From contig OZ244070.1 in the NCBI GenBank assembly GCA_965215605.1, forward strand, positions 2,336,001 through 2,400,000: a stretch of DNA of 64,000 nucleotides, in the 5' to 3' direction. How positions within the stretch are numbered: position 1 is the first letter of the stretch; each line of letters starts with the position of its first letter. This document shows, one piece after another, positions 3,408-42,853 of this stretch. The notes under the pieces were generated by a model. That model saw only the letters and a program-made list of their open reading frames with translations. It was not told the DNA's origin and did not search any database. This stretch comes from an uncultured Candidatus Binatia bacterium. GTDB taxonomy: Bacteria > Desulfobacterota > Binatia > UBA9968 > JAJDTQ01. The position numbers and the translations under genes were made by a program.

Positions 3408-3482
3408 TGGTAGGCACGGGCGGGATTGAACCGCCGACCTCTTCCGCGTCAAGGAAGCGCTCTCCCACTGAGCTACGTGCCT
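3408..3482 (-). tRNA. tRNA-Val (anticodon GAC)
   Basis: AGGCACGTAGCTCAGTGGGAGAGCGCTTCCTTGACGCGGAAGAGGTCGGCGGTTCAATCCCGCCCGTGCCTACCA folds as a cloverleaf with GTTCAA T-loop and encoded CCA. Confidence 0.97.
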
Positions 3483-39549: not shown

Positions 39550-40377
39550 ATGACCCGCGCACCCTCATACCCATTCTTCTCGGACCCTCCGCCCAGAATC
39601 GCGGGGCATCGTGGCGCCGCCGGAACCACGCCGGAGAACACCCTGGTTTCGTTCCGCCGGGGGCTGGAGGAAGGCGCCACCTACCTCGAGCTGGACGTCC
39701 ACGCCACCCGCGACGGCGAGATCGTCGTCATCCACGACGACACCGTCGAGCGGACCACCGACGGCGACGGCACGGTGCGGGACATGGCCCTGGCCGAGTT
39801 GAAGCGGCTGGACGCCGGCTACCGTTTCACCGCCGACGGCGGCGCCACGTATCCGTTCCGGGGCCGGGGCATCCGGGTCCCCACCCTGCGTGAGTATTTC
39901 ACTGAGTTTCCCGAGGCCAGGACGACGGTGGAGATCAAGGAACTGCCGCCGTCCGCCACCGAGACGCTGTTGGATCTCATCGAGGAATGCGGCAAGGCGG
40001 AGCAGGTGCTGGTGGCCGCCGAGGACGACGCCGTCATGGCTGCCGCGCGGGCGGCCATCCGCGGCCGCGGCCTGCGCGTCGCCACGGGGTTCTCCCTGGG
40101 CGAGATCCGCGCCTTCATGACCGCCCTCTGGACAGGACAGGAGTTGCCGCGGGAAGCGCCCGGCCAGGCGCTTCAGATCCCGCCGGCGTACCGGGGCACG
40201 GCGCTGGTCACCCCGGAGTCGGTGGCGGCCGCCCATGGCCTGGGCGTGGAGGTCCATGTCTGGACCGTCAACGAGGCCGACGAGATGAAAGACTTCCTGG
40301 CCCTCGGGGTCGACGGCATCATCACCGATTACCCCGCCCGCCTGCGGGACGTAGTCCGTCCATCCGAAACGCATTGA
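39550..40377 (+). CDS. Glycerophosphodiester phosphodiesterase
   Basis: GHRGA...[31 protein letters not shown]. Confidence 0.93.
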
Positions 40378-40432: not shown

Positions 40433-41038
40433 ATGGGGGACACGACACCAGACCAGCGCATGGAGCCGCTGCTCGACGCGTTGGAGGAGCCGGACAAAGG
40501 GGTGGTCCGCCGCGCCGTGGAGGGGCTGGTGGCCATTGCCGCGGGGGAGCCGGGGGTTGCCGAGGCCCTGGACCGACGGCTGCGGGCCAACCCGCGGTGG
40601 CCCGTCGCCTATGCCTTGGGGCAGATCACGCGTCCGTCCGCGGCTTGCCTCGAAGTGCTCGTCCGAGGCCTCGGGAGCGGCGATCAGGACGTGCGCTGGG
40701 CCACGCAACTCCTCATCACCGACCGCGGCAGACGCTTTCCGGAAGTCGGATCGCGTCTGGAAGCGCTGCTGGGGGAAGGCTCGGCCACCCAACGGAGAAT
40801 GGCCGTCTACTGTCTGCGAGACATCGGAGCCGCCGCCGGTTTGCCGGCCGTGTTCCTGCAGGCCCTGCACGACCCCGAGCCGCTGGTGCGGGTGGCGGTG
40901 ATAACGAGCCTCACCAAGGCCCCGGCGGCCGGGGCGAGGGCGCTGGATGCGCTCAGAGCCGCCGCCGCGGATGATCCCGACACCCGGGTGCGGAACGCCG
41001 CGGCCTTTGCCGTCAAGCGTCTCTCCGACCCCGGCTGA
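40433..41038 (+). CDS. HEAT/PBS-lyase repeat protein
   Basis: Repeated helical units DxDxxVR (DQDVRW, DPEPLVR, DPDTRVRNAAA). Confidence 0.8.
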   Translation: MGDTTPDQRMEPLLDALEEPDKGVVRRAVEGLVAIAAGEPGVAEALDRRLRANPRWPVAYALGQITRPSAACLEVLVRGLGSGDQDVRWATQLLITDRGRRFPEVGSRLEALLGEGSATQRRMAVYCLRDIGAAAGLPAVFLQALHDPEPLVRVAVITSLTKAPAAGARALDALRAAAADDPDTRVRNAAAFAVKRLSDPG

Positions 41039-41058
41039 ACGAGCCCGCGCGAAAAAAA

Positions 41059-41087
41059 TTGACAAACAGACCGGCCTCCCCTAAAAT
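41059..41087 (+). promoter_or_regulatory. Near-consensus sigma70 promoter with upstream A-tract
   Basis: AAAAAAA-TTGACA-17 nt-TAAAAT. Confidence 0.85.
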
Positions 41088-41119
41088 ATCCGTCAGCAGA
41101 GAAAGGAGGTGGTCAAAAT

Positions 41120-41155
41120 ATGAGTGACATATGCTGTGAGGTGACTGAGACCTAG
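41120..41155 (+). CDS. 11-aa small ORF MSDICCEVTET, within a possible structured small RNA of about 150 nt
   Basis: Extended SD AGAAAGGAGGTGGTC (41100-41114) before the ATG; own promoter and terminator; below the ORF-track size cutoff. Confidence 0.6.
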   Translation: MSDICCEVTET

Positions 41156-41208
41156 GCTCTCGAGCCTTTTCGGAATTGAGGGTCTTGGTCAATTCCGACA
41201 GTACACCG

Positions 41209-41250
41209 AGCCTTGGCTGGCCACCGCGTCAGCCAAGGCTTTTTGTTTCT
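41209..41250 (+). terminator. Intrinsic terminator
   Basis: AGCCTTGGCTG-loop-CAGCCAAGGCT followed by TTTTGTTTCTT. Confidence 0.85.
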
Positions 41251-41290
41251 TCCGTTACTGTTTCTTCCGCCATCGTTTCTTCAATCCTCG

Positions 41291-42082
41291 TCAGTACGTC
41301 CCCGCCCAGCCGATGAAGCTCGCCTGGCGGCCGGTGACGCCGGCGCCGTCCTTCGATTCCCGCCGGTAGGAGAAGAACGCTTCCGCCGTGCACGCGGTGC
41401 AGGGGCCGGTCGTGGCGATGCGGTCATCCGGCACTCCCGCGGCCGCCAATAGCGCGGCGTTCAACCGTCTCAGGTCGAGGTAGGTCTTGCCGTCGCTCTC
41501 TCGCAGGGCGGCCTCCGCCTTGTCTCCCCATGTCTCGATCAGGGGGTCCGAGACGTCGGCGCCGATCTCGTAGCAGCAAGGGCCGATGGCCGGCCCCAGG
41601 GCGCACCACAGGTCCCCTGGCGCGGTGCCGTAACCGCTCTCGATGTGCCGGACGGTCTTCATGGCCACGCCGGACAGGGTGCCGCGCCAACCCGCGTGTA
41701 TCACCGCCGCCAGCCTTCCGCGGGAAGTTCGCGCCCAGCAGACGATGGGCACGCAGTCGGCGGTCAGCACGCCGAGGTACACGCCCGGCGCGGCAGTCAC
41801 CATGGCGTCGCCTTCGCCGGCGTCCTTGGATGGCACGTCGACGTCGATGACGTTGTCGCCGTGCCGTTGTTGCATGGTGACCATCCGGGTGCCGGCCATG
41901 CCCACGGCACGCTTCATGTCGCAGTAGTTGTCCTTGACGGCCTGGGGGTCGTCGCCCACCGCGAAGGAGACGTTGAGGCCGGCAAACGCTCCCTGGCTGT
42001 TGCCGCCGCCCCGGCCCAGGAACCCGTGTCGGAGTCCGGGCTCCGTTTCCCAGCCGGGAACGCGATAAACGGTCAGGTCCAT
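41291..42082 (-). CDS. pgeF: PgeF/YfiH (laccase-domain, purine nucleoside phosphorylase) family protein
   Basis: HGF..R.GG.S, Q.HG, GVLTADCVPI, HAGWRG, GPAIGPCCYE, FFSYRR. Confidence 0.93.
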   Translation of the reverse strand: MDLTVYRVPGWETEPGLRHGFLGRGGGNSQGAFAGLNVSFAVGDDPQAVKDNYCDMKRAVGMAGTRMVTMQQRHGDNVIDVDVPSKDAGEGDAMVTAAPGVYLGVLTADCVPIVCWARTSRGRLAAVIHAGWRGTLSGVAMKTVRHIESGYGTAPGDLWCALGPAIGPCCYEIGADVSDPLIETWGDKAEAALRESDGKTYLDLRRLNAALLAAAGVPDDRIATTGPCTACTAEAFFSYRRESKDGAGVTGRQASFIGWAGTY

Positions 42083-42106: not shown

Positions 42107-42853
42107 TTAGAATCGCGACAGCAACGCGCCCAAGCCGTCCAGCCGGTCCGTTAGCCCGTTCTGCCGCAGCGCGTACCAGTAGATGGCCGTGTTGATGGCG
42201 ATGACCGGCTTGCCGAGCCGGCGTTCCGCTTCGCCCGCCAGCCGCGCCATGGCCAGGTTCGTGCCCACCTGGACCACCGCGTCCACGTCGCTGCCGTCCA
42301 CCTCGCCGATGGCGGCCTCCAGCGCGTCCGCCTGCACGTGGGCGATGAGCACCGGGCTTTCGCATTTGAGTCCCTTGAGGCGCACCACCTCGTAGCCGCA
42401 GTCGGTGAAGAACCGCACCACTTGGGCGTCGCCCACGGGCATGTACGGGGTGATCACGCCGATGCGCTTGATGCCGCCGTAGGCCTCCAGCGCCGCCTCG
42501 CAGGCATAGGAGCCCATGGCGACCCGCACCCCCGCCCGCCGCTCCACCGCTTCCAGAAGCCGCCGGCTGCCCTCGGCGCCGTCCCAGAAGGTCTCCGACG
42601 ACATGCCCATGATCAGATAGTCGGGCCGGCAGGTCATCACCCGGTCGATGGCGCTGTCCACTTCCGCGCGGATGTTCCGCATCAACTGCTCGAAGTCCGC
42701 GTCGTCGTGGATGGGATCGTCGGGAATCCAGATCCGCCCGAAGTGGTTGGTCACCCCGTGCGGCCGCATGTCGTCGAACTCGGGCTGCACCGAGGTGTTG
42801 GTGGAGGGGGCGATGACCGCGAACTTTCGCCGCCAGCCCAGGGCGTCAACCAT
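42107..42853 (-). CDS. Maleate isomerase / arylmalonate decarboxylase / Asp-Glu racemase superfamily protein
   Basis: IAPSTNTSVQPEF, IGVITPY, GTNL, LGKPVIAINTA. Confidence 0.8.
   Translation of the reverse strand: MVDALGWRRKFAVIAPSTNTSVQPEFDDMRPHGVTNHFGRIWIPDDPIHDDADFEQLMRNIRAEVDSAIDRVMTCRPDYLIMGMSSETFWDGAEGSRRLLEAVERRAGVRVAMGSYACEAALEAYGGIKRIGVITPYMPVGDAQVVRFFTDCGYEVVRLKGLKCESPVLIAHVQADALEAAIGEVDGSDVDAVVQVGTNLAMARLAGEAERRLGKPVIAINTAIYWYALRQNGLTDRLDGLGALLSRF

Follow-up and report, generated by a model that had tools for sequence, protein, structure and literature searches.

Results

The locus and its features

The window analysed here is a stretch of 64,000 nucleotides (nt) from an uncultured Candidatus Binatia bacterium (assembly GCA_965215605.1, contig OZ244070.1, positions 2,336,001 to 2,400,000). 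In the gap between a gene for a HEAT-repeat protein and a convergent gene of the YfiH/PgeF family, this window contains a short element that is a conserved, stand-alone gene. Judging by its sequence, the element is a divergent homologue of the RNA family Ms_IGR-5 (Rfam RF02471), and this family is far wider than its name suggests.

We checked the features of the locus by reading the letters of the window from 40700 to 41600 and collected them in Table 1. The original prediction, made from the letters alone, had described an unannotated RNA gene, self-contained and about 150 nt long, with an A-tract and a TTGACA-17-TAAAAT promoter, a 15-nt Shine-Dalgarno sequence (SD) with one G.U pair, an open reading frame (ORF) MSDICCEVTET, a hairpin whose loop can pair with the end of this ORF, and a terminator. 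All of these features were found. The promoter, which had been called the best in the window, is the sole match to at least 11 of the 12 consensus positions in the 64 kb and one of 31 in the 4.06-Mb genome. The fold of the 153-nt predicted transcript has an energy of −61.2 kcal/mol (z = −3.52), and none of 200 shuffled sequences folded as well. No modification or export genes were found near the element; its neighbours are HEAT, Cu-oxidase_4 (PgeF), a glycerophosphodiester phosphodiesterase (GDPD) and an arylmalonate-decarboxylase-family (Amdase) protein.

Table 1. Features of the element and its surroundings, in positions of the window. A1 is the alignment of 39 transcripts from genomes of the same order.
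Feature	Position	Strand	Remarks
GDPD, second neighbour	39550-40377	+	syntenic across the genus
HEAT-repeat protein, upstream neighbour	40433-41038	+	Pfam HEAT_2, E 1.5e-17; syntenic in relatives
A-tract, UP-element-like	41052-41058	+	immediately 5' of the −35 box; an A/T-rich stretch at the equivalent place in relatives
Sigma-70-type promoter	41059-41087	+	TTGACA (41059-41064), 17-nt spacer, TAAAAT (41082-41087); 11/12 consensus positions
Predicted transcript, about 152 nt	41095-41246	+	+1 at A41095, predicted from the −10 spacing and the onset of conservation in A1
Helix P1, 5' strand GCAG	41096-41099	+	pairs with 41134-41137; RNAalifold columns 2-5 with 52-55
Extended SD AGAAAGGAGGTGGTC	41100-41114	+	unpaired, between helices P1 and P1b
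Hairpin P1b	41112-41128	+	GTC 41112-41114 with GAC 41126-41128; start codon in the loop; RNAalifold columns 18-20 with 35-37
Small ORF MSDICCEVTET	41120-41155	+	11 codons and TAG; ATG at 41120, TAG at 41153-41155
Helix P1, 3' strand CTGT	41134-41137	+	last base of the first Cys codon (TGC) and the second Cys codon (TGT)
Helix P2, 5' strand GGTGACTG, SD-like	41140-41147	+	overlaps the E-V-T-E codons
Pseudoknot stem S1, 5' strand GAGACC	41147-41152	+	directly 5' of the stop codon; complementary to GGTCTT 41181-41186
Local hairpin GGCTC-TC-GAGCC	41155-41166	+	genus-specific; begins at the last base of TAG
Hairpin S2, TCGGAATTGA / TCAATTCCGA	41170-41179 with 41189-41198	+	loop holds the S1 3' strand GGTCTT, 41181-41186
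Helix P2, 3' strand CAGTACACC, anti-SD-like	41199-41207	+	abuts the terminator
Intrinsic terminator	41208-41246	+	14-pair stem 41208-41241 and T-run to 41246
YfiH/PgeF family, downstream convergent neighbour	41291-42082	−	Pfam Cu-oxidase_4, E 6e-69; syntenic in relatives
Amdase, second neighbour	42107-42853	−	syntenic across the genus

Conservation and orientation in related genomes

Relatives were searched with a 200-nt query in 41 genomes of the same order, the window's own genome included. The element was found in 39 of these genomes. It is present in all 24 other genomes of the genus, with an identity of 83–96%, and in 5 of 5 and 9 of 11 genomes of two sister families. In alignment A1 the block CTGyGAGGTGnCTGrGACyTAG is invariant save for its four marked positions, and the flanks and the N-terminal codons vary. 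The TTGACA box is kept in the 39 aligned relatives and travels with the element. The terminator stem covaries in the same alignment (A-U in 26 and G-C in 11 copies at one pair, C-G in 32 and U-A in 6 at another). Copies from other orders of the window's class (L164–L169) are without a TTGACA box; about 50 nt upstream of the element they carry a G+C-rich block, ..GGCGGCGGGGC[A/T]TGGGCCCG.., which may reflect another type of promoter or additional structure at the 5' end.

The element always lies in the convergent gap between HEAT and pgeF. It follows HEAT and faces pgeF in 24 of the 39 loci; in 15, including one from the window's own genus, it is inverted, follows pgeF and faces HEAT. A co-oriented downstream gene was found in none of the 39: the detected downstream gene has the opposite orientation in 37 loci, and in two none was detected. 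Since both orientations occur in the same gap and no co-oriented gene lies behind the element, a working or recently orphaned leader or attenuator is excluded. This agrees with the original prediction, which had noted that pgeF is convergent and that the element is not a working leader in place. The prediction had also considered that homologues might always lie directly upstream of co-oriented cysteine genes, and this was not borne out in the 39 loci.

In its own genome the element is single-copy. A second match to the Rfam model in this genome (22 bits, L002) was considered as a paralogue and rejected, since it lies in a coding-looking region without SD, ORF or terminator. Among plasmids no match for the element was found, and among phages there was one, to an unannotated contig of 25.7 kb (MT835602.1, L170) titled 'UNVERIFIED: Bacteriophage sp.'. 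This contig carries at 300–470 a complete copy of the actinobacterial type, with the SD GGAGGTGATCC, the ORF VISDRTCEVARR and, as its stop, TGA. Either the phage label is wrong and the contig is bacterial, or the copy is carried by a phage; we draw no evidence of mobility from it.

Homology with the Ms_IGR-5 family

At the Rfam gathering thresholds no match was obtained at the element; the only match in the window is a tRNA gene at 3411–3482 on the minus strand (67.9 bits). A permissive scan gave one full-length match at the element, RF02471 (Ms_IGR-5), with model positions 1–184 over 41095–41247, a score of 30.5 bits and an E-value of 2.4e-5. The original prediction had named a match to a known Rfam family as something that would speak against it, and this applies in part: such a match exists over the full length of the model, and its score stays below the RF02471 gathering cut-off of 45. 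An orthologue from the same order (G030) scores 46.7 bits, which is above the cut-off. In a sample of the class, the model matches 22 of 61 genomes at E ≤ 1e-3, three of them above the cut-off (G030 with 46.7, G382 with 49.1 and G374 with 48.4 bits).

We also scanned one genome per species with an exact pattern of the two conserved blocks and obtained at least 117 loci; this pattern misses divergent members. Among the matches listed, the actinomycetotal titles are Mycobacterium, Mycolicibacterium, Nocardia, Saccharopolyspora, Streptosporangiaceae, Actinomadura, Streptomyces, Frankiales and Propionibacteriales. The other titles among the matches listed are Candidatus Binatia, Terriglobales, Blastocatellia, Ignavibacteriales, Zixibacteria, Eisenbacteria and Leptospira weilii, where the labels of metagenome-assembled genomes (MAGs) can be wrong. 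The relatives titled Candidatus Binatia have the window's flanking genes in common. When 18 of the pattern loci were rescanned with Rfam, 12 passed the cut-off and 6 failed; the passing scores run from 175.8 bits in Mycobacterium down to 54.9 in Eisenbacteria and 47.5 in Ignavibacteriales. Because the Eisenbacteria and Ignavibacteriales loci pass, the name of RF02471, 'Actinobacteria sRNA', is too narrow. In Leptospira one copy was found in each of the 22 genomes of the genus searched, with an identity of 85–100%. In a sample of the phylum the exact pattern occurs in 2 of 301 genomes, a count that reflects the stringency of the pattern and not absence, since the Rfam model matches 22 of 61 genomes in the class. 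For the copies in other phyla, no common neighbour was found in naive ORF lists, which are noisy in high-G+C DNA; the neighbours are variable.

In a Saccharopolyspora rosea record (L070) the 3' half is unrecognisable after the stop codon and the locus fails the Rfam cut-off. About 73 nt past the SD of this copy an ORF opens whose beginning resembles a transposase or a helix-turn-helix protein, and this may be an insertion into the element. In a Terriglobales genome flagged as unpublished (G387, locus L051), the element is followed at a distance of about 130 nt by a tRNA gene and preceded, about 3 kb away and on the other strand, by a tmRNA gene.

The window's copy shares with RF02471 the order of its blocks: 5' ACACA/AGCAG, AAGGAGGUGGUC, a short ORF ending in UGYGAGGUGRCUG, two codons and a stop, then CAG..ACC and the terminator. 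Of these, AAGGAGGUGGUC, UGYGAGGUGRCUG and CAG..ACC with the terminator are common to the window and to loci scoring 62–176 bits. There are also differences. The middle domain of the window's copy is a compact H-type pseudoknot, in contrast to the long actinobacterial hairpin, the register of its 5' helix is shifted by one base, and in its order there is an extra Cys codon. Its host is a Candidatus Binatia bacterium and not one of the Actinobacteria of the family name. The consensus structure of RF02471 in Rfam does not draw the helices P1 and P2 described below. We hold the identity and the architecture of the element with high confidence.

IGR-5 was reportedly first described by Li et al. in 2013. 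A later preprint places IGR-5 of M. smegmatis between MSMEG_5794 and MSMEG_5795, states that it starts with A and is NAD-capped, and calls it 'validated but yet uncharacterized' (bioRxiv 10.1101/2021.12.14.472595). In a cold-stress study the same RNA is ncMSMEG15794c (PMC10454040). Two further papers report expression of Ms_IGR-5 in S. lividans, by Rfam-based annotation (PMC8079986), and a transcription unit matching it in S. avermitilis (PMC8780764). In these sources, documented expression as a discrete small RNA is limited to actinobacterial members (bioRxiv 10.1101/2021.12.14.472595, PMC8079986, PMC8780764). In the literature searched, we found no function, cross-phylum range or reading of the ORF as helix strands for Ms_IGR-5, RF02471 or IGR-5. 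The peptide strings of the small ORF were likewise absent from the literature searched.

The Shine-Dalgarno sequence and the 16S tail

The single 16S gene detected in the genome ends in ...GGATCACCTCCTTTCT. With this tail the SD AGAAAGGAGGTGGTC forms 15 consecutive pairs, including one G.U, with a duplex energy of −24.5 kcal/mol, so the pairing proposed in the original prediction against a typical 16S tail holds for the genome's own. The exact 15-mer occurs once in the genome, and AAAGGAGGTGGT is invariant in all 39 copies of A1. In relatives from the class the extension of the SD is GGTGGTCC or GGTGATCC, with A or G opposite a 16S U, and both forms pair with 16S. A perfect GGAGGTGATCC SD occurs in three of the five L164–L169 copies.

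Long SDs that extend into GATCC are common in this genome, where 53 GGAGG-centred sites pair over at least 12 nt with the 16S tail, six of them over 14 nt. Since extended SDs are so frequent, the SD of the element is the extreme of an ordinary distribution and not unique in kind. Outside rRNA, a single site exceeds the SD of the element in length: GGGGAGGAGGTGGTCC at C1:3443970 (+), which can pair with the tail over 16 nt, several of its pairs being G.U. A second SD-like block in the element, GAGGTG, lies 6 nt 5' of the last sense codon.

The small ORF

We surveyed the ORF in 128 distinct 5' halves of family copies. In 125 of them an ATG, GTG or TTG lies 3–10 nt past the SD and shares its frame with TGY-GAG-GTG, and this frame stays open to the stop; in the other two frames a start codon falls in the same 3–10-nt interval in 1 and 32 copies. 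Counted from TGY, the stop comes six codons later in 126 copies. It is TAG in 121, TAA in 5 and TGA in 1, and one locus is cut off. The ORF has 10–19 codons among the distinct copies, and the differences in length within the window's order are 3, 6 or 9 nt. As to the exceptions, ATT is the possible start in two copies, and the third, from Eisenbacteria, is read in another frame and still ends at a TAG in the same place. With an intact reading frame in 125 of the 128 copies, the ORF is probably translated. One study reports significant ribosome footprints on Ms_IGR-5 homologues in M. abscessus and M. smegmatis (PMC4974804).

The N-terminal halves of the peptides vary freely (MSDIC.., MIDKC.., LIDLW.., MHRCR.., VNESCCKQL..), and for this reason the conservation of the frame supports translation and not a conserved peptide. 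In other orders of the class the ORF reads V-T-Y/F-x-P-T-V-I-C-E-V-V-A-x. The second Cys is confined to the window's order and is absent both from the other orders of the class and from other phyla. The original prediction had proposed to look across related genomes for the SD, the paired Cys codons and the stems; the SD and the stems are kept, and the second Cys codon is not kept beyond the order.

Helices P1, P1b and P2

RNAalifold was run on the 39 transcripts of A1. It joins the 5' end, AGCAG, to CTGyG (P1), forms a small hairpin enclosing the start codon, and joins GGTGrCTG to CAG..CACC directly 5' of the terminator (P2). The variable pair of P1 in the RNAalifold columns is G-C in 30 transcripts, G.U in 7 and A-U in 2; in the count for Binatia it is G-C in 29, G.U in 7 and A-U in 2. 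Outside Binatia the RNA starts with ACACA when the Cys codon is TGT and with ACGCA when it is TGC (ACACA/UGUG versus ACGCA/UGCG), so that nucleotide 3 of the RNA and the wobble base of this codon change together. In 90 distinct copies from outside Binatia this pair is A-U in 73, G-C in 14, G.U in 1 and A.C in 1, with 1 unplaced; the single A.C (L119) is a register miscall and is G-C by eye. Both states occur within records labelled Actinomycetota and within records labelled Acidobacteriota, which means that the double change in P1 took place more than once. The only G.U exception in P1 is a copy of mycobacterial type (LVDLWTCEVAAS) in a record titled as a Gammaproteobacteria MAG (L082), and this contig is probably mis-binned. 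At the place of P1b, pairing of GUCC at the end of the SD with GGAC in the W/R-T codons of actinobacterial copies is present in 71 of the 128 distinct copies.

The pairs of P2 were counted over the 122 copies in which a script located the terminator; the script failed in 19 of 141 and mis-set some others. The variable position of P2 is A-U in 30 copies, G-C in 60, G.U in 20, C-G in 3 and unpaired in 9. At the next position there are 33 C-G, 19 A-U, 6 U.G, 4 G-C and 2 U-A pairs, with 58 copies unpaired, and at the one after it 31 G-C, 7 C-G and 3 U.G, with 81 unpaired. The median energy of the P2 duplex is −17.05 kcal/mol, against −13.2 kcal/mol with shuffled downstream sequence, and a duplex of −12 kcal/mol or lower is formed in 111 real and 96 shuffled cases of 146. 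Since energy alone does not discriminate in G+C-rich sequence, the case for P2 rests on its position and covariation.

The conserved residues of the peptide coincide with the strands of P1, P1b and P2, and we found no peptide conservation beyond these constraints of the RNA. On this comparative evidence, C-E-V-(A/T) is explained by the strands of P1 and P2.

The pseudoknot and the 3' half

The hairpin with a loop able to pair with the end of the ORF, as originally proposed, is supported by compensatory changes in sister families. There the homologue of stem S1 is longer: AGGCTCTAGGC just 3' of the stop pairs with GCCTGGAGCCT in the hairpin loop. The bases that form the local hairpin at the stop codon in the window's genus form this long S1 stem in the other families. 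We tested the structure made of P2, S1 and S2 on 18 distinct sister-family copies with 500 shuffles. In these copies 94.1% of the cells are paired and 8 pairs are changed on both sides, namely 2 in P2 (99.4% of cells paired), 3 in the pseudoknot stem and 3 in S2. At one pair of the pseudoknot stem the copies are evenly split, with 9 A-U and 9 G-C. None of the 500 shuffles reached the observed values in four of the five measures, and when the partner was slid by 1–3 columns, pairing fell to 30–57%. These compensatory changes argue that the pseudoknot is real.

By eye, in comparisons that were not counted, the copies of Ignavibacteriales, Zixibacteria and CSMAG share this topology, and their stem (ACTTAG / CTAAGT) includes the stop codon itself. 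In the actinobacterial and Terriglobales copies, seen in the same uncounted way, the stop lies within a plain hairpin. No antiterminator was found, with no systematic search for alternative folds; the 3' strand of P2 extends as far as 41207 and the stem of the terminator begins at 41208, so that the two do not overlap.

Discussion

A proposed ribosome-engaged structured RNA

The members of the family share an architecture. P1 and P1b hold a stretch of 12–16 nt complementary to 16S in an unpaired bulge, with the start codon in a hairpin loop. An ORF of 10–19 codons follows, whose last six or seven codons are strands of P1 and P2. Its stop codon, UAG in nearly all cases, is found within or next to a third helix, and in this lineage that helix takes the form of an H-type pseudoknot. 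The explanation that we prefer, with moderate confidence, is that the element is a stand-alone structured RNA of the Ms_IGR-5 type that would be engaged by ribosomes and whose fold would be opened by translation. P1 and P1b would keep the start codon in a loop and present the SD in a bulge of about 13 unpaired nt, an ideal landing pad for the ribosome in an RNA that would be built for very efficient ribosome loading. A ribosome moving along the 10–19 codons would open P1, then P2 and then the helix or pseudoknot at the stop codon. The RNA would alternate in this way between a closed fold and a ribosome-opened fold. At termination the SD-like GAGGTG would lie 6 nt before the last sense codon, and the freed strands, which are anti-SD-like (CCACC, UUCC/UCCC), would abut the terminator. 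The peptide would be largely a by-product, and it would be the act of translation that matters. The output may be ribosome engagement itself, or the opened 3' half with its anti-SD-like, C-rich strands acting on other molecules. Candidate outputs are ribosome titration, exposure of a regulatory strand, and sensing of initiation or of RF1 capacity.

A more far-reaching version is that Ms_IGR-5-like RNAs are an ancient ribosome-gated class of several phyla. In it the displayed SD would capture a ribosome by pairing with the full 16S tail, and translation of a mini-ORF whose sequence is irrelevant would unzip three helices. The dwell at the UAG, which is read by RF1 only, lies in a helix or pseudoknot and follows a second SD-like block, would time the exposure of the anti-SD-like, C-rich 3' half. 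The RNA would in this way be a sensor of free ribosomes or of the capacity for termination, and would pass the signal on in trans, to mRNAs or a protein partner. We regard this version as rather unlikely. Targeting of the UAG helix by RelE or RNase III, RF2-like frameshifting, stop read-through and a ligand-binding pseudoknot were also considered, and nothing was found in support of them.

Several points weigh against the preferred explanation. The switch between two states gated by translation is something we infer, and we put it forward tentatively, as somewhat doubtful in itself. Transcription and translation in the host organism are predictions from the sequence. The score of the window's own copy lies below the RF02471 cut-off. 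Copies from outside the window's relatives were gathered with an exact pattern in which the SD core and TGYGAGGTGNCTG are set in advance; that these blocks do not vary across phyla is therefore partly produced by construction, and the copies counted are kin and not independent, which overstates the number of evolutionary events. Within the genus the S1 stem is invariant, so it has no covariation of its own there. The Cys-x(0-2)-Cys arrangement is fairly well kept within the order (most A1 copies read as keeping it, with L031 and L040 as exceptions), and the helices leave it unexplained. The C-terminal residues may have a role of their own, for example in the ribosome exit tunnel.

A rival view is that the product is a Cys-containing, metal- or thiol-active peptide of 11–14 residues, or a peptide acting in the ribosome tunnel, and that the RNA structure merely tunes its synthesis. 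The ORF kept in 125 of 128 copies, C-E-V-(A/T) kept across phyla and the second Cys kept in most copies of the order would all suit such a peptide. We nevertheless consider it unlikely, because its conserved codons are helix strands whose silent positions are frozen or covary with distant bases, its N-terminal half is free to vary, and one lineage uses another frame. The second Cys, absent from the other orders and phyla, and the conserved Cys codon, which is the 3' strand of P1, speak against the thiol- or metal-binding Cys-Cys micropeptide of the original prediction. Its suggestion of a precursor of a ribosomally synthesized and post-translationally modified peptide fares no better, with HEAT, PgeF, GDPD and Amdase as neighbours in place of modification or transport genes, and the peptide strings are absent from the literature searched. 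We give an equally low probability to the idea that occupancy itself is the function, the 15–16-nt duplex with the 16S tail parking or titrating small subunits, or ribosomes cycling on the mini-ORF; sequestration of 30S subunits was among the suggestions of the original prediction. The strong promoter, the unpaired display of an SD whose duplex takes up all of the free 16S tail (−24.5 kcal/mol), the restriction of its 3' extension to A or G opposite a 16S U, and the second SD-like block before the last sense codon all fit this idea. However, the genome has many long SDs (53 sites of at least 12 nt and one non-rRNA site of 16 nt), the gene is single-copy, and for a pure sponge the in-frame ORF, the fixed position of the stop and the 3' helices would be superfluous.

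A leader attenuator sensing Cys, orphaned or reading through into the convergent gene, is very improbable. It would account for the two adjacent Cys codons of the window, for an ORF followed by a terminator and for the possible alternative pairings. Against it stand the 39 loci without a co-oriented downstream gene, the two orientations in the same gap, neighbours that differ between phyla, and a P2 strand that abuts the terminator stem without overlapping it. Of the two Cys codons a single one is conserved in the family; this codon forms a helix strand, and its wobble base pairs with the 5' end of the RNA. The orphaned Cys attenuator of the original prediction is thereby rejected, and the Cys-dependent stalling that it proposed is not supported, the second Cys being absent outside the order. 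A chance combination of promoter-, SD- and hairpin-like sequences in an intergenic gap has a negligible probability: each motif occurs singly elsewhere in the genome, but the element is 83–96% identical across the genus, has invariant blocks across the order and relatives in several phyla, and its helices covary.

Comparison with other systems

In dual-function small RNAs, such as SgrS/SgrT, RNAIII/hld, SR1/SR1P, Spot 42/SpfP and AzuCR, a short, independently transcribed RNA with a terminator combines a small ORF with a conserved structure. The element resembles them in these respects, with its translation being predicted, and also in that translation and the fold or base-pairing of the RNA would compete for the same bases. 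In contrast to them, its peptide seems dispensable in sequence, and the Ms_IGR-5 family spans several phyla, unlike the lineage-restricted examples. Leader-peptide attenuators are known for trp and his, and polycysteine leaderless short ORFs are known in mycobacteria. As in leader-peptide attenuators, codons of the short ORF overlap helices 5' of an intrinsic terminator, and the position of the ribosome would decide which of them form. Unlike them, the element has neither a regulated downstream gene nor a conserved run of regulatory codons, and no antiterminator was found, a systematic fold search not being part of the analysis. Its ORF has a very strong SD, unlike the leaderless polycysteine ORFs. 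H-type pseudoknots at stop codons are known from retroviral read-through signals, and TnaC is a peptide that stalls at termination. The likeness to these is one of functional analogy only: the UAG lies in or beside a pseudoknot or helix, and an SD-like block stands at an initiation-like spacing from the last sense codon. Unlike in read-through signals, there is no conserved extension frame after the stop; in the window 8 codons are followed by TGA. The analysis gave no sign of stalling or of read-through.

Significance

Ms_IGR-5 has long stood in Rfam as an uncharacterised 'Actinobacteria sRNA', and it is now found in the window's class, in Leptospira and in records labelled Acidobacteriota, Ignavibacteriales, Zixibacteria and Eisenbacteria. 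An RNA of this type has a small ORF kept in frame nearly everywhere, whose conserved residues match covarying helix strands. For the annotation of small proteins this is a caution, because the conserved 'CEV' micropeptide appears to be mostly a footprint of RNA structure. An orphan RNA thus gains an architecture that can be tested, with a displayed super-SD, a mini-ORF that would have to be unzipped and a stop codon inside a helix, and members of the family are present in tractable hosts, M. smegmatis and Streptomyces.

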